A stretch of 20,000 nt of DNA from an uncultured virus (IMG/VR IMGVR_UViG_3300030085_003924) (lineage: Duplodnaviria; Heunggongvirae; Uroviricota; Caudoviricetes). Positions within the stretch are counted from its first letter, which is position 1. Each line of letters opens with the position of its first letter. The stretch covers positions 54,675 through 74,674 of the IMG/VR virus record IMGVR_UViG_3300030085_003924, one strand, 5' to 3'. Below are positions 1 to 16,816 of this stretch, in pieces. Made by a program: the position numbers and the translations under genes. The notes under the pieces are model-generated. The model saw only the letters and a list, made by a program, of their open reading frames with translations. It was not told the DNA's origin and did no database searches.

Positions 1-17
1 GAACGATAAGGTGTTTC

Positions 18-689
18 TTGATTAATTTACCAAATGTTACATTGTATGCAATTTCTTCTGTTCAAATAGAACAGACAATTAAAGCACTTGAGTATTCGTG
101 TAGAGGAATCAATTTTGGTGCGGTAAAGTTTGTAACACATGAGGATATAAATCACGATTATATTAAGGTAGAGAAAGTATCAAGAATCAATAGTATAGAC
201 GAGTTTAGTAAGCTTATGGTATATGATTTACCTAAATATATTGATACTGATTACTCTATTTCAGTTCATTATGATGGATTTATAGTTAATCCTGAACAAT
301 GGAGAGATGATTTTTTAAATTATGATTGGATAGGACCTCTTTGGACGAAAGGTCATAATTATTTTGACAAGAATGGTAACCAAGTTAGGGTTGGAAATGG
401 TGGTATTTCCTTTAGAAGTCAAAGACTTATAGGACTGGCAAAAAAGTTAAATTTACCTTGGGAGCCGTTTACTAATAATGGAGAACATAAACCAGGTTAT
501 TGGGAAGATGCTTTGATTTGTGTAAAGAATAGACATATTTATGAAGAACATGGATGTAAATTTGCACCAATAGAAATAGCAGCAAAATGGGGTAGAGAAT
601 TACACAACCCACCTATTTCAGAAAATGAAGGAATAACACCTTTCTCATTTCACGGAAAAAAGGATCCGTACTTAGACCTTATACAATAA
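18..689 (+). CDS. DUF5672-family protein (glycosyltransferase-like)
   Basis: Motifs VHYDGFIVN..W.DDFLNYDWIGPLW, VGNGGISFRS, WED.LIC, KFAP.EIA, PFSFHG match the recalled DUF5672 pattern (GNGGFSLRS). TTG start with AAGGT upstream; the frame is open to the window edge, so the start is not certain. Confidence 0.8.
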   Translation: MINLPNVTLYAISSVQIEQTIKALEYSCRGINFGAVKFVTHEDINHDYIKVEKVSRINSIDEFSKLMVYDLPKYIDTDYSISVHYDGFIVNPEQWRDDFLNYDWIGPLWTKGHNYFDKNGNQVRVGNGGISFRSQRLIGLAKKLNLPWEPFTNNGEHKPGYWEDALICVKNRHIYEEHGCKFAPIEIAAKWGRELHNPPISENEGITPFSFHGKKDPYLDLIQ

Positions 690-1321
690 TGGGATTTTCT
701 TTAAAACATATTTTGTATTTTCATATGCCAAGGACTGCGGGTGATTCTATTAGAAAATCTATATCCAATTTCCCAAAGATGTGTAGAGTTACAACTCATC
801 ATAGTCAAGTTCACGCCATCAAAAATATAAAACAACATTCAACTTATTCACATCACAAATCATTTACATTTGTTCGTAACCCTTATAATAGACTTTATAG
901 TTCTTATAATTGGATTATGAACAGAGATACATCAAGAAATGAAGATTTGAGTGGAATTGATTTGTTGGAATATGATTATCTAAAGGGATTCAATGATTTC
1001 AACGATTTTGCCACTAATGTAGATGTGGATGGAATAAATAAAGAATTTATGATACACTTTCACCCTTGTAGTAAATGGATTTGGGATTCAAAACTTTTAA
1101 TTACAAATTTTTTCAAGTTCGAAGATTTATTCAGTAACGATGATTCATTCTTACATTGGTGCAAAGATAACGGACTTAATTATCAAGGACTTGTAGATGA
1201 AACACACAAATCTAAATGGACAGAAAGAAATTATTTTGATTATTTTAATTCTGAATCGATATTTAATATAAACAAGTTATATAAAAAAGACTTCGAACTT
1301 TTTGGTTATGAGAAAATATGA
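689..1321 (+). CDS. Sulfotransferase family 2 (PAPS-dependent carbohydrate sulfotransferase)
   Basis: 5'-PSB-like FHMPRTAGDS, 3'-PB-like FTFVRNPYNRLYSSY, C-terminal YKKDFELFGY; TAATG coupling to upstream gene. Confidence 0.88.
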   Translation: MGFSLKHILYFHMPRTAGDSIRKSISNFPKMCRVTTHHSQVHAIKNIKQHSTYSHHKSFTFVRNPYNRLYSSYNWIMNRDTSRNEDLSGIDLLEYDYLKGFNDFNDFATNVDVDGINKEFMIHFHPCSKWIWDSKLLITNFFKFEDLFSNDDSFLHWCKDNGLNYQGLVDETHKSKWTERNYFDYFNSESIFNINKLYKKDFELFGYEKI

Positions 1322-2139
1322 TAACAACAAGATTAAGACATACATTTACACCTAATCCCGAAACAAAGACACCAGACATAGGATTGGCTAATAGATTGTT
1401 TCAAATAGCAGCAGGTATTGGTTATGCAAAAAAATATAATGATAAGGTAGTTTTTCCTGATATCTTACATAAGAACTATGATATTCATAGGAATACTATA
1501 TTCAGAAATCTAAACTCTAATGGTGGTTCAAGAAATTTTATACAGAATACACATAGTTATACTGGTTATGGATACCAACCGATACCATTCAAACCAAATA
1601 TGGAACTTAATGGTTGGTTTCAATCTTGGAAATATTTTGAAGGTGCAGACAACGAAATAAGAGAAACATTTTCAATACCAACAGATATGATGGATTACTT
1701 AAATTCAAAGTATTCCGATATTCTAAGTAAAAAAACAGTTAGTGTTCATGTCAGACGAGGTATACAGGCAGCAGACGAAGCCGCATTAAGACAATATCCA
1801 CAGGCTGGAGCAGACTATATATCCGAGGCAGTAAAAATGTTTGATTCATCTTATACTTTTGTTTTATTTAGTGATGGTCATAATTGGTGTAGAGAAAATC
1901 TCAGAGATGATGTACCATTTGTTCATATTGAAAATGAAACAGAGATAGTTGATTTATATTTAATGTCACTAATGCATCATAACATTATTTACAATAGTAC
2001 ATTTAGTTGGTGGAGTGCTTGGTTGAACAAAAATCCAAATAAAAAAATAATCACTCCCAATACTTGGTACGGACCTGATAATCCATGGCCAAACCAACCT
2101 GATGAAGATTTGATACCAAATAATTGGATACGAATATAA
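1318..2139 (+). CDS. GT11-family glycosyltransferase (alpha-1,2-fucosyltransferase-like)
   Basis: GLANRLFQ, GWFQSWKYF, SVHVRRG, FSD..WC, DLYLMS..HNII.NSTFSWWSAWL, DLIPNNWIRI. Confidence 0.92.
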   Translation: MITTRLRHTFTPNPETKTPDIGLANRLFQIAAGIGYAKKYNDKVVFPDILHKNYDIHRNTIFRNLNSNGGSRNFIQNTHSYTGYGYQPIPFKPNMELNGWFQSWKYFEGADNEIRETFSIPTDMMDYLNSKYSDILSKKTVSVHVRRGIQAADEAALRQYPQAGADYISEAVKMFDSSYTFVLFSDGHNWCRENLRDDVPFVHIENETEIVDLYLMSLMHHNIIYNSTFSWWSAWLNKNPNKKIITPNTWYGPDNPWPNQPDEDLIPNNWIRI

Positions 2140-2819
2140 TGGAAAAAGATATAAATAAAGATTATTTCAAAGAAAAAATAACTAAAGAAAATCCAACAAT
2201 ATTCGATGTTGGAACTTTTGATGGAAGTGATTGTTTAGATTTTTATTATTTATTTTCAAATCCAACCATCTATGCATTTGAAGCTGATAAAAGGTCAGTT
2301 GATATTTTCAAAAAATATGTTGGTCATAGACCAATTAATTTGGTAGAAACTGCTCTTTCAAATGTAGATGGTGAAATTGAGTTCTATCAAAGTGAAAGTG
2401 AAACTCGTAGACACTCTCAAAGATATGATTACGAAAAGACTTGGAGTGCGTCAGGTTCAGTAAAGAAACCAGATAATCACCTTAGTGTATTTCCTGATAT
2501 ACAATTTGAATTAAATAAAGTTAAATCTACAAAATTAGATACTTGGATGTCAGATAAAGATATTGATTTAATTGATATAATGTGGGTGGATGTTAATGGT
2601 GGAGAAGAAGAATTTTTAAGTGGTGGAAAAAACACCATAAATAAAAAAGTTAATTATTTATATATAGAATTCAACGGAGTTGATGACCGAAAGTTATACA
2701 AAGATTGTTATACTGCAAATCAGATTAAAGACACATTACCTAATTTTGAAGAAATAGGTATCTATAATTTTATGGGAAATTTTGGTAATATATTATTGAA
2801 GAATAAAGGAGTAGGATAA
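2139..2819 (+). CDS. FkbM-family SAM-dependent methyltransferase (NoeI-like sugar O-methyltransferase)
   Basis: IFDVGTFDG, IYAFEAD, ALSNVDGEIEFY, KLDTW, IDIMWVDVNGGE, YLYIE. Start moved from 2124 to the ATG at 2139 that overlaps the upstream TAA. Confidence 0.88.
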   Translation: MEKDINKDYFKEKITKENPTIFDVGTFDGSDCLDFYYLFSNPTIYAFEADKRSVDIFKKYVGHRPINLVETALSNVDGEIEFYQSESETRRHSQRYDYEKTWSASGSVKKPDNHLSVFPDIQFELNKVKSTKLDTWMSDKDIDLIDIMWVDVNGGEEEFLSGGKNTINKKVNYLYIEFNGVDDRKLYKDCYTANQIKDTLPNFEEIGIYNFMGNFGNILLKNKGVG

Positions 2820-3580
2820 TGGGAAATTATCAAGGATTAAAGAAAGAAGAAACTCGTAATGAGTATGGTGAAGATATTCATTATACAAGTTGGCCAGTTG
2901 GGAAAATTCCTAAAGAATTTCAACGACCTGAACTTGACCAAGTAAGAGAATTGGGATATGATTGGGATGATCCACGAGATGTAGTGGATATGTTTGAGGA
3001 GAAGGTTGCTAAATTTGCTGGTAGTAAATACGCTTGTAGTATAGATTCATGTTCCAACGGATTATTTTTGGCAATGAAATATCTTAATGCCGAAGGAACG
3101 ATTACAATTCCTAAGAGAACCTATGTTTCACCACCAATGCAAATAATACATGCTGGATGTAAAGTAAAGTTTGAAGATAGAGAATGGAGTGGAGTTTATA
3201 AATTAGAACCATATAATATTTGGGATGGTGCTACGGCTTGGACGAAAGGAATGTATGTTGGAAACGATGCAATACAAGTTGTGTCTTTTCAAATAAAGAA
3301 AAGAATACCAATTGGTCGTGGTGGTATGATATTAACAGATAGTAAAGAGGCATTTGAATGGTTCAAATATGCTACATATGATGGTAGAAATCTTAGAGAA
3401 TATTATATGGATGATAAGTTTGCAATGATTGGTTGGCATATGTATATGACACCTGAAGATGCCGCCAGAGGTATAATATTGATGGATTCAGTTCCAGAGG
3501 TAAATGAGGATACAGGTGGTTCAACCACATATTCGGACTTATCAGATAGAGAAGTATTTAAAGATTACTTAGGAGAATAA
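2819..3580 (+). CDS. Short DegT/DnrJ/EryC1/StrS-family PLP-dependent aminotransferase (253 aa)
   Basis: FEEKVAKFAGSKYA..DSCSNGLFLA, WDGA (PLP Asp), SFQIKK (PLP Lys), GRGGMILTD, GWHMYM. Lacks the C-terminal domain of full-length members. Confidence 0.82.
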   Translation: MGNYQGLKKEETRNEYGEDIHYTSWPVGKIPKEFQRPELDQVRELGYDWDDPRDVVDMFEEKVAKFAGSKYACSIDSCSNGLFLAMKYLNAEGTITIPKRTYVSPPMQIIHAGCKVKFEDREWSGVYKLEPYNIWDGATAWTKGMYVGNDAIQVVSFQIKKRIPIGRGGMILTDSKEAFEWFKYATYDGRNLREYYMDDKFAMIGWHMYMTPEDAARGIILMDSVPEVNEDTGGSTTYSDLSDREVFKDYLGE

Positions 3581-4333
3581 ATGACACCTAAAATATCCAT
3601 AGTTACAGCAACACATCGTAGACCTGATTTATTGTACAAATGTATAAAGTCAGTTCAAACCTCAACCTTACAAGAATATGAACATATAATAGTAGGTGAC
3701 CATTGTGATTGGGCACAAAGAGTATGTGAGTTATTTTCAGATGATAAAAGAATAAAATATTTTGAAACACCACATCCTCATGTTTGGAATGCTGGTGCCA
3801 GTTCAAAAAATATTGGGATAGAAAAGGCACAAACTGATTACATTGTTTATTGTGATGATGATAATATAGTATTAGAAAATCATTTAGAGGTGATGTACAA
3901 TGAGATGTCGAAGGGAACTAAGTTGTGTGCGTCAAAATTATATGAAATCACATTGGATAATTGGGGAGATGGTTCAATAGAAACTCTCATGAACATACCA
4001 TTACCAAAGTTAAATGAATTACAGAATGGTCGGTCACATTATGGTGATATGCAATGTTATGGACACACGAAGTCATTATCGGATTGTGTGGGTGGATGGC
4101 AAACAGCCGAAGAAATACAACACGATAGTAGGTGGACAAAATCAGCAGTAAATGAAGATGGATATTTACTATGGAAATTCGATAGACTTATTAATGAGAA
4201 GCCTGTGTTTCTTGATTCCATAAGTGTTGTGTATTATGGTAGAGGTGCCTGTTCGAATAAAGACAATGAATACGAAAAATTATTAAATATTGATGAACTA
4301 TTTGTTTATCCAAACCTTACGGAGAAATTATGA
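3581..4333 (+). CDS. GT2-family glycosyltransferase
   Basis: KISIVTATHRRP, CIKSV, EHIIVGD, KNIGIEKA..DYIVYCDDDN, NED motif; AGGAG RBS. Confidence 0.88.
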   Translation: MTPKISIVTATHRRPDLLYKCIKSVQTSTLQEYEHIIVGDHCDWAQRVCELFSDDKRIKYFETPHPHVWNAGASSKNIGIEKAQTDYIVYCDDDNIVLENHLEVMYNEMSKGTKLCASKLYEITLDNWGDGSIETLMNIPLPKLNELQNGRSHYGDMQCYGHTKSLSDCVGGWQTAEEIQHDSRWTKSAVNEDGYLLWKFDRLINEKPVFLDSISVVYYGRGACSNKDNEYEKLLNIDELFVYPNLTEKL

Positions 4334-5316
4334 AGAAAAAAGCGTTTATAACAGGTATATCTGGTCAAGATGGTAGTTATCTTGCAGAATTACTATTGGA
4401 AAAAGATTATGAGGTCTATGGTATAATCCGTAGAAACTCCACACCCGAACACCAAGAAAGTAGAATTGACCACTTGGTTGGGAATGGAGTAGAAACAGAG
4501 TATGGTGATTTACTTGATGTAAGTTCATTAGAGAGAATGATACGAACAATACAACCTGATGAAATATACAACATAGCAGCACAAAGCCATGTTAGAATCA
4601 GTATGGATATTCCACAATTTACAGTTCAGGCTAACTGCCTTGGGTTATTGAATGTATTAGAGGCATATAAAAACAATTGTCCTACCGCAAGATTTTATCA
4701 AGCATCATCATCTGAGATGTTTGGTCGTTCAGTTGATGAGGATGGATATCAAAGAGAAACCACACCTATGCATCCTACAAGTCCTTATGGATGTACAAAA
4801 GTATTTGGATTCAATATGGTAGTTCATTACAGACACGCCTATAAATTATTTGCATCAAATGGTATTCTATTTAATCACGAATCACCAAGACGAGGTTCTA
4901 ATTTTGTAACCAACAAGGTTGTTAAATGTGCTGTTCAAATTAAACACGGATTACGAGACAAGTTACCACTTGGTAATTTAGAAGCATATCGTGATTGGGG
5001 ACATTCAAAAGATTATGTTAGAGCCATGCATATGATTATGAATCATACAGAACCAGATGACTTTGTATGTGCTACAGGTCAGAGTAGGTCGGTAGGAGAT
5101 ATGTGTGAGTATGTATTTTCAACTCTTGGATTAGATTACAAAGACTATGTAACTGAAGATCCAAGATTCATGAGAGCAGAAGAATTAAAATATCTTAGAG
5201 GTGACTCTACTAAACTCAGAGAAACCTTTGGATGGGAGCCAGAATATACATTTGAAACCTTGATGGATGAGATGATAGAACATTGGGAAAAAATATACGA
5301 TTTTGGGAATAAATAA
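4330..5316 (+). CDS. gmd: GDP-mannose 4,6-dehydratase
   Basis: ITGISGQDGSYLAELLLEK, PDEIYNIAAQSHV, FYQASSSEMFG, SPYGCTK, NGILFNHESPRRG, LGNLEAYRDWGH. Confidence 0.97.
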   Translation: MKKKAFITGISGQDGSYLAELLLEKDYEVYGIIRRNSTPEHQESRIDHLVGNGVETEYGDLLDVSSLERMIRTIQPDEIYNIAAQSHVRISMDIPQFTVQANCLGLLNVLEAYKNNCPTARFYQASSSEMFGRSVDEDGYQRETTPMHPTSPYGCTKVFGFNMVVHYRHAYKLFASNGILFNHESPRRGSNFVTNKVVKCAVQIKHGLRDKLPLGNLEAYRDWGHSKDYVRAMHMIMNHTEPDDFVCATGQSRSVGDMCEYVFSTLGLDYKDYVTEDPRFMRAEELKYLRGDSTKLRETFGWEPEYTFETLMDEMIEHWEKIYDFGNK

Positions 5317-5330
5317 GGATATATATTAAT

Positions 5331-6161
5331 ATGAAAGAAAAGGTTTTAGTAGTAGCTCCAACAACTGCAAGTAGATTACCATTATTAAAAGAGGTTTTAG
5401 GAAAATTATATGACAATACTAATTTAGACATTAAAACTATTGTTGTAAAGAATGGTACTTATTCAGATGAAGAATATCAGAATTTTGATTTTGGATTACC
5501 CAATATAATAAAAACCACTTCAGAACCTGGTGGACATATATCACATGCTATGAATGTTGGTATGGAATATATGACAGACGAGGATTGGTTTGTATATCAA
5601 GAAGATGATATAGTGTTTCAAAATGAAAAGTGGTTAGAAAATATGATTTCCATATACAAGACTATCGATAATTGTGGTGCCTTTGGAACAAGACTTCATG
5701 GACAACAAAGACAATTTACTAATACATCAGAGTCTTTGAAAAAGAAAGATGATGATACATTCGAGGTTTATTGGTCAGACGGGTTTACTTTAATTAGTGG
5801 TGATATAATTAGGAAACATAATTTAAGGTATGATGAACATATGATGACCGTTCCAAATGCATGTATTAACTTACAATTAATCGAATTGGGTTATGAAAAT
5901 TGGAGAACAGAGTTAGAATATGTCCATCATCACATTGGTGGAGATAGAACTGGTACACCCAAATGGAAACATGCTGATGTACCGATACATATGAAACGAG
6001 GTGATTGTCAGATTTACCTAAAGTATAATGGATGTGGTATTGAGAAAATACAAGATTGGGTTAATATGGATACTATTAAGGCCAGAGATTGGTTAATATC
6101 AAAAGGTAGAGATAAAGAAGATTATCAAACTTTTGAGTTGAATGAGGAGAACTATGTATAA
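5331..6161 (+). CDS. Divergent GT-A fold (GT2-like) glycosyltransferase
   Basis: N-terminal beta-alpha-beta start, IVVKNG, ISHAMNVGM, WFVYQEDDI (xDD), YDE, terminal VHHH; located in the glycan cluster. Confidence 0.7.
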   Translation: MKEKVLVVAPTTASRLPLLKEVLGKLYDNTNLDIKTIVVKNGTYSDEEYQNFDFGLPNIIKTTSEPGGHISHAMNVGMEYMTDEDWFVYQEDDIVFQNEKWLENMISIYKTIDNCGAFGTRLHGQQRQFTNTSESLKKKDDDTFEVYWSDGFTLISGDIIRKHNLRYDEHMMTVPNACINLQLIELGYENWRTELEYVHHHIGGDRTGTPKWKHADVPIHMKRGDCQIYLKYNGCGIEKIQDWVNMDTIKARDWLISKGRDKEDYQTFELNEENYV

Positions 6162-7324
6162 TGGATATTAGAGAAAAACCATTAAAGGTTTTAGGGCCAT
6201 TTGGAGACAAATCAGATATAGATTCTATTGGAGAAGTTATTGAAAGTGGATGGTGGGGAAAAGGACCTAAAGTTCAAGAGTTTGAAGAAAAATTTGCAGA
6301 ACTTGTTGGTGCAAAACATGCGATAGCAGTTACAAGTAATTCTCATGGTCAAGATTTGGTTATGAAAGCCATGGGATTTAAAGGTATTGATGTTATCAAT
6401 CCAACAATATCTTTCGTAGCAACGGCACAGATTCCATTGTGGAATGATTGTACTTCCAACATAGTAGATGTCGATTCTGTAAATCTTAACATAACGGCAG
6501 AAGAAGTAGAAAAGTGGAAGAAACCAAATTCAGAAGTTTGTATTGCTGTGAATATGGCTGGGATTCCAGCACCTATTGACGAGATTAGAAAAGTATTTGG
6601 TGGATATATTATTGAAGATTGTGCACATAGTTGTTATACAGAAGGTGCTGGTACAAAAGGTGATGTGGCAGTTTGGTCATTTCAGGCAGTGAAAACGATG
6701 CCGATTGGTGATGGTGGAATGATTACATTAGATGATGATGATTTGGCAAATAGAATCAGAGAAATGTTATGGTTTGGTGTTTCTTCAACTTGGAGTAGAG
6801 CAGCAGATTCGAGTGGTACTCGACCTGGTTACGCTTGGGATTATCAAGTAGATAAACTTGGGTATAAATACTATATGATTGATATTATAGCAGCTCTCGG
6901 TTTATCTCAGATGAAAAAACTACCTCAATTCTTGGATACTCGTAGACATATACAAAAAAGATATAATGATGAGTTACATCCAATAATCGAAAGACCAGCA
7001 TATTCTGATACGGTTCAGTACTATTGTGCTAGATTACCTATGAAGTTTGAAAATATGGCACCTGATGGAAGTGGATATAGCAGAAAAGTGTGTAGAGATG
7101 ACTTAATTAATTACTTGGCAGATAAGAAGATACATACATCAGTTCATTTTAAACCTTTACATCTGTATAATTTATTAAAGGATGATACCAAAAGATTACG
7201 AGTTGCAGAACAAGAGTGGGTGAAGTTAATAAGTTTACCTTGTCACAATGGAATGACAGACGAAGATATAGATTATGTAGTTTATTGGGTTAATAAATTT
7301 ATAGAGGAAGAATATGAAAAGTAG
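6161..7324 (+). CDS. DegT/DnrJ/EryC1/StrS-family NDP-sugar aminotransferase (full length)
   Basis: SGWWGKGPKVQEFEEKFA, IIEDCAHS, WSFQAVKTMPIGDGGMI, LGYKYYM.DI.AALG, IHTSVHF.PLH, ISLPCH. Confidence 0.95.
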   Translation: MDIREKPLKVLGPFGDKSDIDSIGEVIESGWWGKGPKVQEFEEKFAELVGAKHAIAVTSNSHGQDLVMKAMGFKGIDVINPTISFVATAQIPLWNDCTSNIVDVDSVNLNITAEEVEKWKKPNSEVCIAVNMAGIPAPIDEIRKVFGGYIIEDCAHSCYTEGAGTKGDVAVWSFQAVKTMPIGDGGMITLDDDDLANRIREMLWFGVSSTWSRAADSSGTRPGYAWDYQVDKLGYKYYMIDIIAALGLSQMKKLPQFLDTRRHIQKRYNDELHPIIERPAYSDTVQYYCARLPMKFENMAPDGSGYSRKVCRDDLINYLADKKIHTSVHFKPLHLYNLLKDDTKRLRVAEQEWVKLISLPCHNGMTDEDIDYVVYWVNKFIEEEYEK

Positions 7325-8012
7325 ACTCATATTAGGTGATGGTAGTTTAGGAACTGAATTAGTCAAACAAACTGGTTGGGATTATATTAGTAGAAAGAAA
7401 GATGGTATTGATTTTAAGGATATTAAAACATATCAAGGCTATATGTTTGGTTATGATGAGATAATTAATTGTATAGCATGTACTAATACTTATGACAAAT
7501 GGAAAGATGAAAATTGGAATACAAATTATAAGGGTGTAGTTGATTTAGTGGATTATCTTGATGGAACAGACACGAAGCTAATTCAGTTTTCTACCGATTA
7601 TGTTTATGCCCAATCAAAGACAAACGCCTCTGAAACAGATGTTCCTGTACACAATGGAAATTGGTATAGTTATACAAAGGTAATATCAGAACCATACATA
7701 GAATTGAGATTAGACGATTACTTAATAATAAGGTCAACTCACAAACCAAGACCTTTTATGTTCGAAAAGGGATTGATAAGTCAAATTGGTAACTTTGATT
7801 ATATTGATATTGTTTCAAAAATATATATTGATTTGATAGAAGGAGATGCAAAAGGTATTTATAATGTTGGAACTGAATTAAAAACTATGTATGAATTGGG
7901 TAAGAGAACTAAGGATGACATCGTACCCACTAATGAAAAATTTCACGATACCATGCCATTGGATGTGAGTATGAATTTAACTAAACTAAAGAAGTTTTAT
8001 GATAAAAAATAA
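7314..8012 (+). CDS. RmlD-like NDP-4-keto-sugar reductase (short SDR)
   Basis: LILGDGSLGTEL, IINCIACT, FSTDYVY, YSYTK (YxxxK), YLIIR, GIYNVG. Confidence 0.8.
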   Translation: MKSRLILGDGSLGTELVKQTGWDYISRKKDGIDFKDIKTYQGYMFGYDEIINCIACTNTYDKWKDENWNTNYKGVVDLVDYLDGTDTKLIQFSTDYVYAQSKTNASETDVPVHNGNWYSYTKVISEPYIELRLDDYLIIRSTHKPRPFMFEKGLISQIGNFDYIDIVSKIYIDLIEGDAKGIYNVGTELKTMYELGKRTKDDIVPTNEKFHDTMPLDVSMNLTKLKKFYDKK

Positions 8013-8700
8013 GAAAGTAGCATTTGTTGTAGCATTACATCAAAGTAAATTACATAGACCTAATGGATTTGAGCTGTTTAATAATTATATTGGTTCTGTA
8101 TATGATTCGTGTGAATATCCATTTAAAGTTTTTGCATTTGACAACCAATCCGACCATAAATTTGAAGTAGAAAACCAACCAGATAATTTGACCATAACAA
8201 GAGTTGATGACCAATACAAGGGTGGATGTACTTATACTTGGAATGAAGGAATTAAACAGGCAATTAAAGAAGATTTTGATGTAGTAATAATAACTTCAGA
8301 TGACCAAATTTATAATGAATCTGTAAACGATTTTGTAGATGTTATATTAACACACGAACTTAGAGACGATGCTATATTTGGCCCGATGTCAAATAATCCA
8401 AATAACAATTATCAATTATCTCATGAACCAATTGATGATGTGTGGGAGATTTCAGGAAAACCAGAAGATGAACTAAATGGATTCTGTTTGGCAATGACAC
8501 GAGAGTCTATTGAGAAGAATTACTTTGATGAGGATGGTAATTTTTTTAACACAGGACAAGAATTTATTTGGGGTAAACAGGATGTTGAAGTCCAGTCGAG
8601 AGTTGGGCATTCCATAGTGGTTGGAAAATGTTATGTTCATCATTATAAACAAGGTGGGTGGAGAGAGATACGAGATGGTTTGAGGATAGATGATGTCTAA
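7999..8700 (+). CDS. Divergent GT2-like glycosyltransferase
   Basis: FAFDNQS, TWNEGIKQA, VIITSDD, GPMSN, LNGFCLAM, YVHHYKQ. Confidence 0.75.
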   Translation: MIKNKKVAFVVALHQSKLHRPNGFELFNNYIGSVYDSCEYPFKVFAFDNQSDHKFEVENQPDNLTITRVDDQYKGGCTYTWNEGIKQAIKEDFDVVIITSDDQIYNESVNDFVDVILTHELRDDAIFGPMSNNPNNNYQLSHEPIDDVWEISGKPEDELNGFCLAMTRESIEKNYFDEDGNFFNTGQEFIWGKQDVEVQSRVGHSIVVGKCYVHHYKQGGWREIRDGLRIDDV

Positions 8701-9466
8701 AAATGTCGTGTTCATACCTAATATAGATTTAGGTGATGGTAGAAATAAATCCTATAAATACTCAATAGATAGTTGGAGTCATTTCGCTAAGAAGAACGAT
8801 TGTGAGTTATTGATTTGGGAAGATTTATTATTTCCCATAGAACAAATGAAGATAACTTGGCAACGATATTATATGTTTGATATTTTAGAGGCAAATAATA
8901 TTGATTATGACCAAATTTTAATAGTTGATGCTGATACAATAGTTCATCCTGATTGTCCTAATTTCTTTACAGAGACAAATGGTAAGTATAGTGTAGTTAG
9001 AAATAATGGTAGTTTTGAGTGGACGAGAAGGTCAATGGATGGATTCTCTAAATTATTATTTGATGGAGAAGTTCCATTTAAAGTGTGGGATTATTTCAAT
9101 TGTGGATTTCAGATTGTTAATAAAGAACACAAGGAGTTTTTTGAATATGTGAGAGATTATTATTTAGAAAACCAAAATAAGATACAAAACGCTATAGAAC
9201 AAGTTCGAGCTGGTACAGACCAAACACTAATCAATTTTTTAATTAGAGAACAGAATGTAGAATTAAATTATTTACCGATAGAATATAATTTACAGGATTT
9301 ACATTCAAAACAACTACTATTTCTTCATCCACAAATGTGGTTCGAAGATAAATTAATATTCGAAAATTGTGGTTATGTATTTCATTTTAATGCGATACCA
9401 CCAAATGATATGAATAGAGATGCAAGTTATTGGATTAAAAGAACATATGAGGAGTTTTACGGATGA
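8693..9466 (+). CDS. GT-A nucleotide-sugar transferase (GT8/GT34-like)
   Basis: SIDSW..FAKK, DYDQILIVDADTIVHPDCPNFF (DxD), YFNCGF, TDQTLINF, YN, VFHFN. Second ATG (8693) is better spaced from GAGGA than 8690. Confidence 0.82.
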   Translation: MSKNVVFIPNIDLGDGRNKSYKYSIDSWSHFAKKNDCELLIWEDLLFPIEQMKITWQRYYMFDILEANNIDYDQILIVDADTIVHPDCPNFFTETNGKYSVVRNNGSFEWTRRSMDGFSKLLFDGEVPFKVWDYFNCGFQIVNKEHKEFFEYVRDYYLENQNKIQNAIEQVRAGTDQTLINFLIREQNVELNYLPIEYNLQDLHSKQLLFLHPQMWFEDKLIFENCGYVFHFNAIPPNDMNRDASYWIKRTYEEFYG

Positions 9467-10386
9467 AAGTAGCATTCTTTTCAGAAACGGGTAGTAATCA
9501 AAAATATCCAAGAGACTTTCCAAATGCCCGTACAGAAGTGGGTTGGTGTTTGGCATTAGATGCCCCAATGTGTCATTTGAATCCATCCATAAAGGAGAGA
9601 TTAGAAAATTTCGATTTAGGGATAGTTATAATTCCTAAAAATAATCCTGAAAAGATTGATTGGGATTGGATAAGGAGTAAGTGTAAAAATGTTGCGGTAA
9701 TGCAAGAAGGCCCACATTGGTACTTTCAAGATTATACAATCGATAAACAATTTCATTATTATAATAGTTTACTTGAAGCAGATTGGGTATATTGTCATAA
9801 TACTTCAGATGTAAATTACTACAAAGGATTAGGATGTAAAGATGTTAGGGTGATGAGAAGTTTGATGATACCTGATGGATTAGTCCCAAGAAACGAGTGG
9901 GGAGATGTAACAATTATTGGTGGTAATTTTGTTAGTTGGTATGGTGGATTTGATTCCTATATGGTTGCAAGAGAGATAGGAGACCCGATAGTAGCACCAT
10001 CAATGGGTAGGAAACAAGATTTGGAAAATCAAATAGAAGATATTCAGTATTTACCATACATGAGTTGGAGAGATTGGATTAATAGTTTATCCCAATACAA
10101 TATAGGAATACATTTGATGAGAACACATGCAGCTGGTACATTCGCTATGAATTGTGGATTTCATGGAATACCATGTATTGGATACAAAGGATTGGACACA
10201 CAAGAATTAATATTTCCAAACACAACAATAGAGGTTGGTGATTTGGAAGGAGCACAAAAGATAGCAAAGAAACTCAAAACGGATGAAAAATTTTATGATG
10301 AGTGTAGTAAAGAAGCATTATATAGATTTAGTGAATATTACACAGAAGAAAAATGGTTAGAAAATTGGGAGAATACAAACAAATGA
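9463..10386 (+). CDS. Putative GT-B fold (GT4-like) glycosyltransferase
   Basis: C-terminal YLPYMSW..W...L....IGIHL....AGTF..NC...GIPCIG...D.QELIFP and terminal helix resemble the donor-binding domain of GT-B enzymes; cluster context. Confidence 0.65.
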   Translation: MKVAFFSETGSNQKYPRDFPNARTEVGWCLALDAPMCHLNPSIKERLENFDLGIVIIPKNNPEKIDWDWIRSKCKNVAVMQEGPHWYFQDYTIDKQFHYYNSLLEADWVYCHNTSDVNYYKGLGCKDVRVMRSLMIPDGLVPRNEWGDVTIIGGNFVSWYGGFDSYMVAREIGDPIVAPSMGRKQDLENQIEDIQYLPYMSWRDWINSLSQYNIGIHLMRTHAAGTFAMNCGFHGIPCIGYKGLDTQELIFPNTTIEVGDLEGAQKIAKKLKTDEKFYDECSKEALYRFSEYYTEEKWLENWENTNK

Positions 10387-12056
10387 AAATAGTCGGATTT
10401 CAATCTGGACACGATGTTTCATATTGTGTTTTAGAAGATGGTGTACCTATAATACACGAGGAGTTAGAGAGATTTACAAGAGAGAAAGAACCATATGGTG
10501 ATGGTTTAGAAATGTTCTTTAATATAGTCGAAGATGTTGATGAATATAAATACTTTTGTTACGGAAATCCTGGTAATAGAACTGGTAGGATACAGGCAGG
10601 TTCAATGAACACAAATCCTGAATCATCTAAAAAAATGAATGATTTAATTGAAAAAAATGATGGTCAGTTTTATATTATAAGTCATCATCAATCTCATGCA
10701 GCAAATGCATTCTTTTCGAGTAATCATGATGAGGCATTAATCATAACCATTGATGGTGCAGGAGTAGATAAAACTGATTGGGAAGATATTACAAGTGAAC
10801 GAGATGGAACTGATGAATTCTCATTCCCAACATCATTCACTTTTTGGATGGGTAAGGGTAACAAAATCAAACCTTTAGAACGAATACATATGTACGAAAT
10901 TACATTGGGTTCACCTTATAAAATATTCACAAGAGATTTATTTGGTTTATCTGGTGGTTATCCACACGGAAATCAGGCAGGAACGGTAATGGCAATGGCA
11001 TGTATGGGAGATTCTGATAAATATTGGAAGGAGTTTTACGATAGTTTGAAATTAGGTGGTGGTGGACCTTCTGCCTCTAATATGAACTTAGCAAAAAAAT
11101 ACAGAGAGTTGATTGAAAGTGAAGTAGATGAAAAGAAAAAAGAAACTTTAAAGTTTGATGTATCAGCTGGAATACAGAGAGCAGTAGAAACGATAGCGAA
11201 AGAATATATTACACCTTATGTGGATAAATACAATCCTAAAAATATTTGTATGGCTGGTGGTGTGGCATTAAATTCTGTAATCGTTGGTAAAATGTATGAT
11301 TGGTATCCTGATGTTAAAGATATATATGTATGTCCTGTACCATATGATGCAGGGTTGGGAATAGGTTCAGCACAATATGTATATCATCAAGTAATGGATA
11401 ATCCAAGAATTACTTGGAAGGATAATACATCACCTTATTTGGGTAGGACTTATGATTTAGAAGATATTCAAGAATCTTTAAATGAAGTTAAAGATAAAGT
11501 ATCCACAGAAGAAGTAGATGATGATGCTGTAGCTATGTTATTATCAGTAGATAATAATGTTATTTCAGTATTTGGTGGTGGTTCAGAATCAGGTCGTAGA
11601 GCATTAGGAAACAGAAGTATATTAGCAGATCCGAGAAGTCCTGATATGAAAGATATCATAAATGAAAAGGTAAAACACAGACAATGGTTTAGACCATTTG
11701 CTCCAAGTATTACACGAGAGGATGTAAAAGATTGGTTTGAGAAAGATGTAGATAGTCCTTACATGACCGCCGTAATAAAGTTCAAAGAGGAGATGAGAGA
11801 CAAAGTACCAGCTGTAGTTCATTTTGATGGTTCGGCTAGATTACAGACGGTAACAGAGAATGATAACGAATGGTATTACAACTTTATTAAAAAGTTTGAA
11901 TCTATGTCGGGTGTTCCTATTGTATTAAATACAAGTTTTAACGATAGGGAGCCGATTGTTGAAACACCAGAACACGCAATTAATTGTTTTTTACGGACAG
12001 ACATAGACTATTTATATTTTAGAGAGTATGGAATATTAGTGAGGAAAAATGGATAA
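10383..12056 (+). CDS. NodU/CmcH-family O-carbamoyltransferase
   Basis: GHDVS, EELERFTREK, HHQSHAANAF, DGAG, AGGVALN, DAGLGIG, ESGRRALGNRSILADP, VKHRQWFRPFAP, VHFDGSARLQTV, LNTSFN. Start moved from 10353 to the ATGA overlap at 10383. Confidence 0.96.
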   Translation: MKIVGFQSGHDVSYCVLEDGVPIIHEELERFTREKEPYGDGLEMFFNIVEDVDEYKYFCYGNPGNRTGRIQAGSMNTNPESSKKMNDLIEKNDGQFYIISHHQSHAANAFFSSNHDEALIITIDGAGVDKTDWEDITSERDGTDEFSFPTSFTFWMGKGNKIKPLERIHMYEITLGSPYKIFTRDLFGLSGGYPHGNQAGTVMAMACMGDSDKYWKEFYDSLKLGGGGPSASNMNLAKKYRELIESEVDEKKKETLKFDVSAGIQRAVETIAKEYITPYVDKYNPKNICMAGGVALNSVIVGKMYDWYPDVKDIYVCPVPYDAGLGIGSAQYVYHQVMDNPRITWKDNTSPYLGRTYDLEDIQESLNEVKDKVSTEEVDDDAVAMLLSVDNNVISVFGGGSESGRRALGNRSILADPRSPDMKDIINEKVKHRQWFRPFAPSITREDVKDWFEKDVDSPYMTAVIKFKEEMRDKVPAVVHFDGSARLQTVTENDNEWYYNFIKKFESMSGVPIVLNTSFNDREPIVETPEHAINCFLRTDIDYLYFREYGILVRKNG

Positions 12057-13269
12057 GGTAATAAGTTTTATACAACCAAGTAGAAACAATTTAAAATATT
12101 TAAAGTGGTCTTACAATAGTATAAGAAAACACTTAGGATACAGACATGAGATATGTATGTCTGATGATTTCTCGGATGATGGTACTTGGGAATGGATGAA
12201 CGAAATAGTTAAGAAAGACCCGAATGTACAGATACATAGAAATAACGGGCCTGAAAGATTAGGACATACAATTCTATATGATACATTAGTCGATATGGCT
12301 ACCAATGATATTGTGATGATTTATCACGCCGATATGTATGCTTGTCCTAACTTAGATACAGAGATACTTAAACATTTGGAACGAGGTAAGGTAGTAAGTG
12401 CAACACGGATAGAACCACCATTACATCCTGATGGGCCAGAAAAGGTTTTACAAGATTTTGGAATAGAACCTGAGGAGTTTGATGAAGAAGGATTATTGAA
12501 TTTTATAAATCAGACTTGGGAAGGAATGCCAGAAGATAAGATTACTAATGGAATATTTGCTCCGTGGGCGATATACAAAGATGACTTTACAAGTATTGGT
12601 GGACACGACCCGTTATATGCACCACAATCAAAAGAGGACTCGGATATATTCAACAGATTTAAATTGGCTGGTTATGAATTAATTCAGACTTGGGAAGGTT
12701 ATGTTTATCATATGACTTGTAGAGGTTCAAGATTTAAAGATGGGGCTCTTAGAAATCCAGCAGGTCAAGTATTTATGAAGGGTAGAGAATCATCGGAGTG
12801 GTTAGCACAAAACCTTAGAAGTACAAGAAACTTTATTCGTAAATGGGGACATATGGTAAAACACGATGAACTATTACATCCAATTATCCCACCAAAATAT
12901 GATGTAGGATTTGTGGTTAAGAATTGTGACAATAAAATGTTAAGAGAGTTAGAACCTTGGTGTTCGGATATGTATGGTGATTGGGTTGGACATAAAGGAT
13001 TTGGTGTGAATAAATACATTGAAGAAGAACAACCAAACACTCAGTTTGATTTGAGTAAGAAATTACACTCACTCTATACTGAACCTGATAATGATGTGGT
13101 TATTAGGTTTGATGCCAGTAAATTGAATCAAGATAACTTCCAAATAATAGTTAATTTATCAGAGATACTTCAACAAAGCGGTGAAGTCGGTGAGATGGAG
13201 TTAGAAATATTTGAATTTTTTATAAAATCACTTGATACTTATGAAAGAGAATTAATAAATGTTAAATAA
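12049..13269 (+). CDS. GT2-family glycosyltransferase with C-terminal extension
   Basis: ISFIQPSRNN, DDFSDDGT, HADM, IGGHDP, EDSDIFNR, VYH; about 120 extra residues after IIPPKYDVGF. Confidence 0.88.
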   Translation: MDKVISFIQPSRNNLKYLKWSYNSIRKHLGYRHEICMSDDFSDDGTWEWMNEIVKKDPNVQIHRNNGPERLGHTILYDTLVDMATNDIVMIYHADMYACPNLDTEILKHLERGKVVSATRIEPPLHPDGPEKVLQDFGIEPEEFDEEGLLNFINQTWEGMPEDKITNGIFAPWAIYKDDFTSIGGHDPLYAPQSKEDSDIFNRFKLAGYELIQTWEGYVYHMTCRGSRFKDGALRNPAGQVFMKGRESSEWLAQNLRSTRNFIRKWGHMVKHDELLHPIIPPKYDVGFVVKNCDNKMLRELEPWCSDMYGDWVGHKGFGVNKYIEEEQPNTQFDLSKKLHSLYTEPDNDVVIRFDASKLNQDNFQIIVNLSEILQQSGEVGEMELEIFEFFIKSLDTYERELINVK

Positions 13270-13705
13270 AAAAATCTGTATTTTTGGTCCACCATGTGTA
13301 GGTAAGACTACTTTAGCATATACGGCTTTAAAAAATAAAATACCTTCATTTACCACACATGATTATAATCCATCCATGTGGCAAAGTAATGAAGAATTTT
13401 TTACTCGTATACTTAATTTAGATATACCTTTATTTCTTGATGTTGGAGGAAAAAATATTGGTTGGATAGATGGTGGAGATGATATAAAAACAGTATTATT
13501 ATTACCACCAAGAGATGTTTATTTAGAACGAGAGAGAATGGATATTGAAAATATAGGAGAACATAGGAATCAAAGTGGTATACAACACTATGATGACTTA
13601 ATGGAATCAAAATCAGAATTTGATTTAGTTATTGAAGATGTCTTATCTCCACAAGAGATTTTTGATTATATTATTGAAACAATGGAACTTAAAAATGAAT
13701 TATAA
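13259..13705 (+). CDS. Small P-loop kinase (NMP/shikimate/gluconate-kinase-like fold), substrate unknown
   Basis: N-terminal ICIFGPPCVGKTTLA Walker A, LFLDVGG, R..R lid-like segment, DLVIE; 148 aa. Confidence 0.7.
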   Translation: MLNKKICIFGPPCVGKTTLAYTALKNKIPSFTTHDYNPSMWQSNEEFFTRILNLDIPLFLDVGGKNIGWIDGGDDIKTVLLLPPRDVYLERERMDIENIGEHRNQSGIQHYDDLMESKSEFDLVIEDVLSPQEIFDYIIETMELKNEL

Positions 13706-14201
13706 AGATTATATTATAGAAGTACAAGATTTTCCAATCGATGGTGTGAACTTTAAAGACCTTTCACCATTACTTGCCGACCAAGAGACATTTAGGTCTG
13801 CTCTCGTGGAAATGGGAAAGAGAGTCAGACTACCTGATTATTGGATTGGGATAGATTCTCGTGGATACATATTTGCATCAGGTTTAGCCACATATTTTGG
13901 TGGTGGTGTTGTATGTGCAAGGAAAGAAGGAAAGACACCAGGTGATAAGGTATCGGTTAGTTATGATTTAGAATATGGAAGTGCCACATTAGAGATGGGA
14001 AAACTCGGAATGGGTGGTGGAGAGGCCGTAATAGTGGACGATGTTCTCGCCACAGGTGGAACACTCAAGGCAACCAATGAGTTAGCAGAAAGGGCTGGAT
14101 ATAGTGTGGTTGGTAACTTGGTATTGGTTGATTTAAAATATGTACCGAGAGTTGATAATTTTAATTTAAATGTGAGGAGTGTAATAAAATATGAAGATTA
14201 G
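13695..14201 (+). CDS. apt: Adenine phosphoribosyltransferase
   Basis: DFPIDGVNFKDLSPLL, GIDSRGYIF, ARKEGKTPG, YDLEYGSATLE, VIVDDVLATGGT (PRPP loop). Start moved from 13632 to ATG at 13695. Confidence 0.95.
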   Translation: MNYKDYIIEVQDFPIDGVNFKDLSPLLADQETFRSALVEMGKRVRLPDYWIGIDSRGYIFASGLATYFGGGVVCARKEGKTPGDKVSVSYDLEYGSATLEMGKLGMGGGEAVIVDDVLATGGTLKATNELAERAGYSVVGNLVLVDLKYVPRVDNFNLNVRSVIKYED

Positions 14202-14673
14202 AGATATTACGATATTGTCATTAATAGTTTTGGCAGTATTAACAAGATTAATTCCACATCCACCAAATGTAGCACCAATAACAGCAATAGCACTATTCGG
14301 TGGAAGTAGGTTTGATGATAAGAAAATGGCATTTTTATTACCATTATTATGTATGTTTATTTCAGATATATTTTTGGGTTTTAGTGTCATAACACCATTT
14401 GTATATTTGTCATTTATGATGATTTCATATATTGGTATAAATTCAAAAAAAATTAGTAACGGAACAATACTTGGTAGTTCTACATTGTTCTTTTTACTTA
14501 CAAACTTTGGTGTTTGGATGTTGGGGTATCCTTTCACACTTGCTGGATTGGTTAGTTGCTATACTATGGCATTACCATTCTTTGTTAATACAATTATAGG
14601 TGATTTATTTTTCACCCATGCCCTTAGTTATAGTTTCTCTACAATAAAGAAAAAACTACCACAATTAACATAA
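14191..14673 (+). CDS. DUF6580-family membrane protein (ECF S-component-like putative vitamin transporter)
   Basis: About 5-6 hydrophobic segments; RLIPHPPNVAPITAIALFGG, PLLCMFISDIFLG, SSTLFFLLTNFGVW, YPFTLAGLVSCY.MALPFF.N...GDL. Confidence 0.85.
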   Translation: MKIRDITILSLIVLAVLTRLIPHPPNVAPITAIALFGGSRFDDKKMAFLLPLLCMFISDIFLGFSVITPFVYLSFMMISYIGINSKKISNGTILGSSTLFFLLTNFGVWMLGYPFTLAGLVSCYTMALPFFVNTIIGDLFFTHALSYSFSTIKKKLPQLT

Positions 14674-14689
14674 CAGAAAAGGAAACAAA

Positions 14690-15706
14690 ATGAATAAAAT
14701 GGTTATAACTCTAATAACATCGTTGTTATTAATAAGTGGTTGTAGTAATCCAACGGAATCTAATGAACCAGCTATAGTACAAGAATGGGTATTTGTAGCA
14801 AATGAGGGTAACTTTGGTGCCAGTAATGGTTCTATATCTATGATTAATCAAGACGGCATTGTTCTTGAGGTCACAGAAGTTGGAGATGTAGTTCAATCAT
14901 TAGAGGTATACGAAAACAAACTAATCGTGGTTGTAAACAATAGTCATATGATTAAGGTTTATGATATTACAGAAGATGGTTTAGCTTTACCAGGTATCGA
15001 AGTATCAACAGACAACTCAAGTCCAAGAGAACTCGTGGTGGTAGGAGATAAAGTATATTTTACTAATTGGAATACTAAAGATGTAAAGGTATTAAATCTA
15101 TTCAATTATAATATAGAAACTTCTATATCAGTTGATGGATTACCAGAATCAATAGTTTCAGATGGTTCGTATCTTTGGGTAGGAATTATGATGAATGAAG
15201 ATTATAGTTCAGCAAGTAGTGTAGTCAAGATTGATATGAATACTAATTCAGTAGTTGAAACATACGAGGTAGGATTGGGACCAACTTCATTGGAAGTAGA
15301 TGAGGATGAGGTTTATGTAGCAAGAACATTCTATGATGAGAATTGGATTCCATTTTATGGTTCAAGTAAAATAGATGGTTCTGGTATTACTATAAATAAT
15401 TATGGTGCAGGGGTGGCCTGTGGTGGTTCAGTAATGAAATATAATAATGAAATCTATCGTTCATTTGATGGTGGTATAGCAAAATTAGATTTTGAATTAA
15501 ATATAAATACAGCATCAAAGATAGGTTCATATGACCAATCTCAAGTATATTCTACTGAAGTAATCGGAGATTATATATATTTCGGTATTACCAATTATGT
15601 AGATGTGAACCAAGTAAGAGTAGTAGATTTTAATAATAATGAAATCTCTACATATGATGTTGGAATATCACCTGGAGATTTTGCGGTTTGGAAAAATAAT
15701 GAGTAA
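14690..15706 (+). CDS. BtuG-like (YncE/DUF5074-type) beta-propeller surface lipoprotein, putative cobalamin-binding
   Basis: Signal peptide with lipobox LISG-C; motifs NEGNF...N.S, GDVVQS, VVNNSH, SPR, G..PTSL and terminal VGISPGDF..WK are collinear with Bacteroides BtuG2 as recalled (NEGNF..SNA, GDVAQS, VVNNSH, SPR, QPTSL, VGIIPGAFCWK). Confidence 0.8.
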   Translation: MNKMVITLITSLLLISGCSNPTESNEPAIVQEWVFVANEGNFGASNGSISMINQDGIVLEVTEVGDVVQSLEVYENKLIVVVNNSHMIKVYDITEDGLALPGIEVSTDNSSPRELVVVGDKVYFTNWNTKDVKVLNLFNYNIETSISVDGLPESIVSDGSYLWVGIMMNEDYSSASSVVKIDMNTNSVVETYEVGLGPTSLEVDEDEVYVARTFYDENWIPFYGSSKIDGSGITINNYGAGVACGGSVMKYNNEIYRSFDGGIAKLDFELNINTASKIGSYDQSQVYSTEVIGDYIYFGITNYVDVNQVRVVDFNNNEISTYDVGISPGDFAVWKNNE

Positions 15707-16118
15707 AAGAAAAATGTGGAAAGATGCAGATAAATCACTTCTGAAATCTTTACCAAACTTAGATGGTGAAAATCCATACGAATTAAAAATGAAACAACCT
15801 GAATTAACATTCTTGGGTGTGTATGAACAACCTGATTTTGCCACATTGTATATTTTGATGCATCCTAATGGTAAAATAGTTGAGTTAAAATCGTTGAAGA
15901 TATACCTACAACAATATAGGGATATCATAATATCATATGAGAGATTGACAAATGTGATTTACGACCATATGATGGAAGTCTACTCACCACAGAGATTACG
16001 ACTTGTGTTGGATTGTATGCCACGAGGTGGTATCATGTCAAGAGTAACCATCGATTCTGATTGGGCTGTAAAGGGTGGAGAAGAAAAATACAATAGTTGG
16101 GGTGAAGATGTCTGGTAA
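15699..16118 (+). CDS. QueF-like T-fold protein (unimodular preQ0 reductase homolog) lacking the catalytic Cys
   Basis: PELT....QPDFAT, QueF motif VELKSLKIYL..YR, SYE, PRGGI. Start moved from 15639 to ATG at 15699. FLGVYEQPD replaces canonical SLCPxTGQPD. Confidence 0.85.
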   Translation: MSKRKMWKDADKSLLKSLPNLDGENPYELKMKQPELTFLGVYEQPDFATLYILMHPNGKIVELKSLKIYLQQYRDIIISYERLTNVIYDHMMEVYSPQRLRLVLDCMPRGGIMSRVTIDSDWAVKGGEEKYNSWGEDVW

Positions 16119-16816
16119 TGCTATCACAATCATTTTTAATACAACGAGGTTATTGTTGTGGACACGGATGTTTGATGTGTCCATACGAACCCAAACACAC
16201 AAAAGGAAATACTAAACTTATGGGTTATGGTAATGTAGAGAAAAAACCACTCATAGTTTGTGCACTCGAAGTTGAGACACAAGGACAATTGGATGACTAC
16301 GATGTATTATATACAGGAGTTGGTAAGGTTAATGCCACATTCAAACTTACACAGAAGTTTGGTAAACATGGTAGTTATATTCCATATGATATGGTAATCA
16401 ATTATGGAACTGCTGGTAGTAGAAAAATAAAGAAGAAACAATTAGTTGATTGTACGAAGTTTATTCAAAGAGATATGGATGTTACTGGTCTTGGATTCAT
16501 GAGAGGTGAAACACCATTTGAAGATAATCCACCAATAACAATAGAAACATCTAAGGATGTATTTAATCCTATTGGTAGGAGAGCAACTTGTGGTACAGGT
16601 GATAATTTTGCAGAGGATAAATCACAATACTATGGTGAGGTTGTTGATATGGAAGCCTACGGATTGGCAAAGGTATGTTATCACTATGATGTTCCATTTA
16701 TCTCATTCAAATATATTACAGATGGGGCTGATGAACAGGCTCACGAAGATTGGGAAGCAAATCTTGCCGATGGTATAGAAGTATTTAAGGAAAAAATATT
16801 AAAGGAATTGAAATGA
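16118..16816 (+). CDS. DUF5522-like Cys-rich domain fused to MTA/SAH nucleosidase (PNP/UDP superfamily)
   Basis: Residues 1-34: RGYCCGHGCLMCPYEPKH.KGNT. Remainder: VCALEVE, TGVGKVNA, INYGTAGS, TGDNF, VVDMEAYGLAKVC, FKYITDGAD. Confidence 0.85.
   Translation: MLSQSFLIQRGYCCGHGCLMCPYEPKHTKGNTKLMGYGNVEKKPLIVCALEVETQGQLDDYDVLYTGVGKVNATFKLTQKFGKHGSYIPYDMVINYGTAGSRKIKKKQLVDCTKFIQRDMDVTGLGFMRGETPFEDNPPITIETSKDVFNPIGRRATCGTGDNFAEDKSQYYGEVVDMEAYGLAKVCYHYDVPFISFKYITDGADEQAHEDWEANLADGIEVFKEKILKELK

Follow-up and report, generated by a model that had tools for sequence, protein, structure and literature searches.

A marine phage gene block pairing likely vitamin B12 capture with likely S-adenosylmethionine supply and adenine recycling

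Introduction

Binding of vitamin B12 by the beta-propeller lipoprotein BtuG involves conserved hydrogen bonds located in blades 1–4 (PMC10404256), and the small membrane protein BtuM functions without the energy-coupling factor (ECF) module (PMC6072759). QueF loses its activity when the cysteine is mutated (PMC13740343), and the direct, flavin-free transfer of hydride to a 5-iminium is established chemistry in Mfr (PMC11094777). Proteins resembling BtuM, BtuG and QueF are encoded by adjacent genes in a six-gene block within a 20,000-nucleotide stretch of DNA (the window; positions 54,675 to 74,674 of the virus record IMGVR_UViG_3300030085_003924, G000). We interpret the block, with a probability of roughly 0.62, as a phage auxiliary-metabolism cassette that combines likely B12 capture with a likely supply of S-adenosylmethionine (SAM) and recycling of adenine. 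A broader version is tentative, and we give it slightly less than an even chance: a widespread lineage of marine jumbo phages would carry its own two-membrane B12 capture kit together with a hitherto undescribed T-fold, flavin-free methylenetetrahydrofolate reductase (MTHFR), and the label "QueF" would be wrong for a large protein family.

Results

The linear record G000 comprises 74,674 bases, is 41% complete and is a fragment of a T4-like marine jumbo phage. It encodes PHROGs for a T4-like polymerase, a sliding clamp and clamp loaders, and Gp23 is present in three of five related virus records, which bears out the viral origin assumed in a preliminary description of this DNA. Half or more of the sampled words of the block are held by 17 DNA runs, recorded as marine, estuary or seawater metagenomes (16) or as an unspecified metagenome (1). 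All six open reading frames (ORFs) of the block were found on the + strand in the order and spacing previously given, overlapping or separated by at most 16 nt, between a gene for a glycosyltransferase (GT) of family GT2 on one side and an epimerase gene on the other. The longest ORFs start too early for apt (13632) and for the Cys-less QueF-like gene, here termed queF* (15639); their likely starts are at 13695 and 15699. The block, at 13259–16816, is composed as follows.

13259..13705, + strand: small P-loop protein of the nucleotide/shikimate-kinase fold; weak AAA matches; a variable passenger, not a core member
13695..14201, + strand: adenine phosphoribosyltransferase (apt); NF002636 at 161.9 bits against a cut-off of 125, PRPP-binding motif intact
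14191..14673, + strand: DUF6580 membrane protein of the S-component fold, likely an inner-membrane B12 importer; PF20221, E 7.5e-48
14690..15706, + strand: BtuG-like beta-propeller lipoprotein, likely for B12 capture; best PDB sequence matches BtuG2/BtuG3, Foldseek TM 0.78
15699..15706, + strand: site of metK (SAM synthetase) in relatives, lost in this strain by comparison with L105
15699..16118, + strand: Cys-less QueF paralogue, QueF*; QueF family match with Gly in place of Cys55, 139 aa
16118..16816, + strand: DUF5522, a small Cys-rich domain, fused to a predicted nucleosidase for 5'-methylthioadenosine (MTA), S-adenosylhomocysteine (SAH) and 5'-deoxyadenosine; PF17653 and PF01048

The lipoprotein carries a cysteine (Cys18), invariant in 46 homologues, behind a hydrophobic leader, as in lipoprotein signals, and is strongly acidic with 48 acidic and 16 basic residues. 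Its structural model (pLDDT 90.8) finds cobalamin-bound BtuG3 and BtuG2 as the top Foldseek matches (TM 0.75–0.78); the top 14 among the matches listed are all of the BtuG type, with E-values down to 2e-18, and the next family follows at 6e-12. Sequence similarity to BtuG2 spans residues 28–205, which probably correspond to the N-terminal blades, and the motifs of blades 1–3 common to both proteins are conserved. Judging from the model and these motifs, the lipoprotein likely captures B12.

Part of the cellular btuG orthologues lie in B12-regulated surroundings. Upstream of the gene, a cobalamin-clan riboswitch stands in 10 of the 23 cellular loci scanned and a SAM-II riboswitch in one, and the sole cobalamin riboswitch found in each of three Marinimicrobia genomes is the one in front of the btuG orthologue; none was found in the closest genomes, G007 and G008. 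In several loci of Bacteroidota, btuG and metH are arranged divergently, and BtuB-like genes adjoin btuG only in the distant loci L101 and L104. No riboswitch was found in the window or in phage loci, with cobalamin riboswitches in 0 of 15 phage btuG loci scanned, and a promoter scan of 42 sites against 35.8 expected was uninformative. Viral contigs yielded no btuG in a single-sequence search and seven loci in an alignment search.

In a rapidly built tree, for which removal of redundancy left 98 of 162 sequences, the 13-member viral group of the window and six cellular sequences form a set with 97% support, and the gene order of these cells matches that of named Marinimicrobia, which we take to be the host group of the phage. 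A second viral clade lies elsewhere in the tree, and therefore btuG was captured by phages at least twice. This second jumbo-phage clade (L018–L024; G003) has btuG beside a clamp-loader gene in six loci and DUF6580 in front of it in L018.

The DUF6580 protein shows the S-component fold. The top rows of VIA-align are BtuM (Z 13.1 and 12.9) and the folate S-component 4huq_S (Z 12.6); against the BtuM structure 8OVV, Z is 13.1 with a root-mean-square deviation of 3.1 over 151 residues, and the other S-components score Z 9–12.6. Foldseek alone gave zero matches at E<=0.001. The sole PDB sequence match of the family profile is 6fnp (E 0.001), presumably CbrT. His23, Asp59 and Cys123 are invariant. 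From the fold and the gene contexts, DUF6580 is likely an inner-membrane importer of B12.

Among 80 metagenome loci, 29 were classed as phage-like by hand, via synteny with G000, and in 25 of these DUF6580 lies directly upstream of btuG (two of the rest end at a contig edge, and two are otherwise arranged). The two genes travel as a pair, and the earlier proposal of a B12-type pair is supported by this linkage, the folds and the cellular riboswitches. In Marinimicrobia, one gene past btuG and on the opposite strand, a slot behind an unannotated protein of 520–550 aa holds either an ECF S-component (PF12822; L054, L061, L063, L070) or DUF6580 (L033, L053, L091), which suggests that the two are interchangeable carriers at this position. 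DUF6580 has no match among INPHARED phages, in which the QueF matches are distant only (<40%).

A consumer of B12 is found in close relatives of G000. The adenosylcobalamin-dependent monomeric class II ribonucleotide reductase (RTPR) scores above the TIGR02505 cut-off in G001 and G005, and in 44 of 80 RTPR loci RTPR is directly followed by the gene for the TonB-dependent receptor, within which the G000 sequence starts. Locus L204 shares 94.9% nucleotide identity with bases 1–2685 of G000, and its RTPR is intact; in L209, with 98.3% identity over 648 bases, RTPR is shortened by 50 residues in frame. Hence RTPR very likely sits just beyond the start of G000, and the previous suggestion of a class II reductase as the probable B12 consumer gains from its presence in near-identical kin. 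In the RTPR copy of L209 (2311–4155), the in-frame gap includes a Cys-Cys stretch and is either a real variant or an assembly error. In this phage group, the receptor itself (G000:C1:16-2544, L001; L190:2440-7280) is a highly conserved protein of about 920 aa, its gene flanked by RTPR and glnA/polB. It was considered as a putative BtuB partner of the lipoprotein. G007 and G008 encode a receptor 34–35% identical to it, its cellular orthologues have no riboswitch, and it also occurs in kin in which btuG was not found.

The QueF-like protein departs from QueF at its catalytic centre. We assembled 106 distinct sequences from 114 loci and the window, dropping duplicates and pattern misses. One side of a branch with 100% support comprises 86 of them, all with glycine at the position of Cys55 and an invariant Ser-Tyr-Glu at the positions of Phe95-His96-Glu97; the other 20 canonical-like sequences all keep the cysteine. 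The NADPH motif and the equivalents of Asp62, Glu78 and Glu97 are invariant or nearly so in a 33-row alignment; in the 106-sequence set, the retrieval pattern itself partly determined the columns of Asp62, Glu78 and the motif lysine, which are also invariant in the 33 rows. Only QueF-family matches appeared in Pfam, NCBIfam and PDB sequences, the TIGR03139 score being just above its cut-off (88.9 vs 86.9 bits), with no match to a TIM-barrel or MTHFR family. By these family matches, QueF* is not a member of MTHFR (PF02219) or Mfr and is at most an analogue.

The neighbours of queF* in 79 loci are metK (19), the nucleosidase (11), ahcY (10), apt (9) and speD (6), as well as metH or metE; the 40 commonest neighbour clusters included no recognisable que or dpd gene. 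Small marine Bacteroidota genomes that yielded no metF have a cellular operon of the order ahcY / SAM-I/IV riboswitch-metK-queF*-DUF6580-metH (L076:11607-16945), and its metK-queF*-DUF6580-metH part recurs in L388 and L390. In L392 and L393, queF* sits between the halves of a split metH, and elsewhere it adjoins pterin-binding methyltransferases or metE. Elsewhere on G000 (C1:29618-30790; L002:10618-11787), a GNAT acetyltransferase carries a fused C-terminal portion, of which 49 residues give a weak QueC-like match.

In a sample of the Marinimicrobia phylum, 9 of 201 genomes carried QueF*, as did 7 of 151 in an order sample around G012. We searched for MTHFR in 80 and 64 genomes, covering all 16 QueF* genomes and a subset of the rest, and excluded 19 QueF*-negative genomes without a methionine-synthase-type domain from the count; the family tested was PF02219, with flavin-independent Mfr-type reductases outside the families searched. 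MTHFR occurs in 2 of the 16 QueF* genomes as opposed to 104 of 109 QueF*-negative genomes of the methionine-synthase type (57/60 and 47/49). The exclusion is seen in two phyla and includes genomes of 3.4–6.2 Mb (G219, G304, G320). Together with the metK/metH/ahcY operon context, it points to QueF* as a likely flavin-independent T-fold replacement of MetF; as a claim from sequence and gene context, we consider the MetF analogue somewhat better than an even bet. Six QueF* genomes hold a second, lower-scoring QueF-like gene. A dihydrofolate reductase (DHFR) family match is present in 13 of the 16, two of them weak, and we rejected a role of QueF* as a DHFR replacement on these grounds.

In the 29 phage-like loci, the gene directly downstream of btuG is metK in 17 and queF* in 2. 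The full order apt-DUF6580-btuG-metK-queF*-nucleosidase is present in eight loci, and two more have the joined order without metK. The sequences flanking the 945-nt metK of locus L105 match G000 at 98.2% and 98.8% identity, and therefore the strain of the window lost metK. Contigs from three of four public DNA runs, from different studies, span the direct btuG-queF* junction, which rules out an assembly artefact. The six genes are real but do not form the fixed unit that the preliminary description took them for: the kinase is seen in only three related loci, and metK, lost from the window, is the seventh gene and the key to the block. G000 also carries genes that consume SAM, namely five radical-SAM proteins, several methyltransferases, a SET domain and AdoMetDC. 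A related phage locus (L287:1861-7546) has apt, the nucleosidase, metK and queF* together with the B12-independent metE, and looks like a B12-free alternative cassette.

The best PDB matches of the nucleosidase are all MTA/SAH nucleosidases, with the MEA motif and the catalytic Asp region aligned and the PNP_UDP_1 fold present. It falls under every NCBIfam equivalog cut-off, so that its substrate range is not fixed by score; futalosine hydrolase was a weaker match and was set aside. Salvage by Apt of the adenine released by such a nucleosidase is an established pathway, and the family matches favour the role previously assigned to both enzymes in recycling adenosyl by-products. The fusion to DUF5522 is genuine, being found in 7 of 18 related nucleosidase ORFs examined. 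Stand-alone DUF5522 in Bacteroidota (L394–L418) lies in about 7 of 25 loci in B12-type contexts (btuG-like, TonB receptor, CobU, periplasmic binding protein, Dph6-like) and in about 9 of 25 beside a class III aminotransferase; in L414 it is fused to a Dph6-like protein. The B12-type share depends on our own reading of the cellular loci, and DUF5522 as a B12 marker was borne out in part only. The Atlas neighbours of the kinase are viral NK-domain and kinase folds. It was rejected as CobU or as a core member, having no family match and being rare (L105, L107, L015).

G000 has numerous glycan genes. Outside the block, positions 1–13269 of the window form a long phage glycan-modification array, including GT2, GT11, a GDP-mannose dehydratase, two DegT-type aminotransferases, a sulfotransferase, an FkbM methyltransferase and a carbamoyltransferase.

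Discussion

We infer the enzyme and transport activities, and the direction of flux, in the following scheme. The BtuG-like lipoprotein would bind corrinoid at the cell envelope and pass it to the putative TonB-dependent barrel, DUF6580 would carry B12 over the inner membrane, as solitary BtuM does, and the imported B12 would serve the phage RTPR and the host MetH. QueF* would use NADPH to turn methylenetetrahydrofolate into the methyltetrahydrofolate required by MetH. In its pocket, the pterin ring would show Glu97 the same aminopyrimidinone face as preQ0, and the 5-iminium would lie near the site of the C7 substituent of preQ0; hydride from NAD(P)H could then pass directly to the iminium, a step that, as in Mfr, would need an acid and no cysteine. 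The ring-binding Glu and the acid Asp are retained. MetK would supply SAM to the radical-SAM enzymes, methyltransferases and SpeD of the phage, the nucleosidase would remove the inhibitory 5'-deoxyadenosine, MTA and SAH, and Apt would return adenine to AMP.

Several observations weigh against this scheme. RTPR is not on the G000 fragment, and no single record carries both btuG and RTPR. G003 has the DUF6580-btuG pair with a class Ia reductase, but also a B12-binding radical-SAM protein, and the complete G002 has DUF6580 and a class Ia reductase with no btuG and no B12-binding domain found. The cassette lacks btuB, and none scored above the TIGR01779 cut-off in five candidate host-group genomes; a cobalamin riboswitch is absent from 13 of the 23 cellular btuG loci, among them L025 and L026, the closest relatives from named genomes. 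The BtuM match of DUF6580 is a tie with that of the folate S-component. Candidate hosts already possess MetF-like genes, two genomes (G090 and G128) hold both MTHFR and QueF*, with the QueF* of G128 nested among viral copies, and the QueF* genomes are incomplete and represent only about six lineages, so that, although the pattern is a strong one, the Fisher p of 1e-12 exaggerates their independence. AhcY is encoded in 10 of 13 candidate host-group genomes and LuxS in none of the 13, and the nucleosidase would therefore not regenerate homocysteine; removal of 5'-deoxyadenosine, MTA and SAH is its more likely task than completion of a homocysteine cycle. Finally, apt-metK-queF*-nucleosidase occurs without the B12 pair in seven IMG/VR loci, some of them near-copies, which marks the block as modular.

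This modularity is also what would be expected of two unrelated cassettes in one variable slot, namely a B12 pair for the phage RTPR only and a separate SAM/adenine housekeeping set, with no coupling via the host MetH. The pair is likewise found outside the SAM block, next to RFC or GT genes (L112, L113, L118, L121, L129), and genes are freely exchanged in the region, as seen for the kinase, a lipase-like gene and the loss of metK. Cells, however, have a single operon of metK, queF*, DUF6580 and metH (L076, L388, L390), and the joined order recurs in phages, in eight loci with metK and two without; we thus regard an uncoupled pair of cassettes as unlikely. QueF* could instead have another one-carbon or SAM-related role, such as pterin or folate binding, MetH reactivation or MetK regulation, in which case the exclusion of MetF would reflect lineage history. 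The few independent cellular lineages and the two genomes with both genes agree with such a role, as do the pocket altered by the invariant Ser-Tyr in place of Phe95 and His96 and the Mfr-type reductases beyond the search. The spread of the exclusion over two phyla and large genomes, and the retained NADPH motif, make it rather improbable.

Phage lipoproteins that block TonB receptors exist, T5 Llp being a precedent, and the BtuG-like protein might correspondingly act in superinfection exclusion, capping a host TonB-dependent barrel used as phage receptor, with B12 import incidental. BtuG forms a lid on BtuB (PMC10404256), which would suit such masking, but the inner-membrane carrier accompanies the lipoprotein in nearly all phage-like loci and the blade 1–3 motifs are conserved, so that we give this explanation little credence. 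Least plausible to us, with only a slight chance, is the original proposal of deazapurine (preQ0/preQ1) salvage, or of adenine recycling from the lower ligand of pseudocobalamin. The narrow TIGR03139 score and the QueC-like match on G000 speak for a deazapurine role. Against it stand the missing catalytic cysteine in 86/86 sequences, the loss of which inactivates QueF, and the neighbourhood of metK, metH and ahcY in place of que genes in the 40 commonest neighbour clusters; six QueF* genomes also carry the second QueF-like gene. As for pseudocobalamin, BtuG makes no contact with the lower ligand (PMC10404256). Nothing was found in favour of this variant. We accordingly retain the combined B12, SAM and adenine cassette as the best explanation.

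B12 is limiting in the ocean, where RTPR phages are common. Phage-borne B12 capture would turn infected cells into B12 sinks and explain the cofactor supply of RTPR phages: an infected cell would scavenge B12 from seawater and run a phage-boosted folate-methionine-SAM line alongside its B12-dependent dNTP supply. DUF6580 is a candidate for the missing inner-membrane B12 importer, and QueF* for the missing MTHFR in methionine-synthase genomes without metF. If QueF* is an MTHFR, it would represent a new fold for the reaction and correct a routine mis-annotation as preQ1 synthase. A literature search, which lay outside most subscription journals, yielded no paper about DUF6580, none about a BtuG encoded by a phage (judged from title or start of abstract) and none about Cys-less QueF in methionine metabolism.

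Comparison with known systems

Marine virioplankton carrying RTPR (bioRxiv 10.1101/2023.03.13.532061) resemble the phage of the window in the B12-dependent monomeric class II reductase of its near-identical kin; the part of that preprint searched mentions no phage-encoded B12 uptake and contains "btu" or "TonB" 0 times. The closest counterparts of the lipoprotein are BtuG1–3 of Bacteroides thetaiotaomicron (PDB 8OKV, 8BMX, 8BAI; PMC10404256), with which it shares the lipoprotein nature, the beta-propeller fold (TM 0.75–0.78), the blade 1–3 motifs, the strongly acidic character and cellular orthologues under riboswitch control. Unlike them, the phage protein, about 22% identical, has no adjacent btuB or btuFCD, is paired with DUF6580 and has its nearest cellular kin of the Marinimicrobia type. 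DUF6580 is similar to BtuM of Thiobacillus denitrificans (PDB 8OVV, 8C7P; PMC6072759) and to CbrT (PDB 6FNP) as a small solitary membrane protein of the S-component fold in B12 gene contexts, whereas it is only 13% identical and belongs to a separate Pfam family. An invariant cysteine is a further likeness, and Cys123 of DUF6580 would be the candidate counterpart of Cys80 in BtuM.

QueF* shares with the unimodular QueF (YkvM) of Bacillus subtilis (PDB 4F8B; PMC13740343) the T-fold family match, the QueF motif and the equivalents of Asp62, Glu78 and Glu97, but differs by Gly for Cys55, Ser-Tyr for Phe95-His96, a separate clade with 100% support and a methyl-cycle gene context. With the flavin-independent Mfr and the FAD-dependent MetF (PMC11094777), it would have in common the predicted reaction, the direct hydride transfer to the 5-iminium and the place of metF in methionine operons. 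The enzymes known for this reaction adopt the TIM-barrel fold, in contrast to QueF*, a T-fold protein of 139 aa for which the same activity is predicted.

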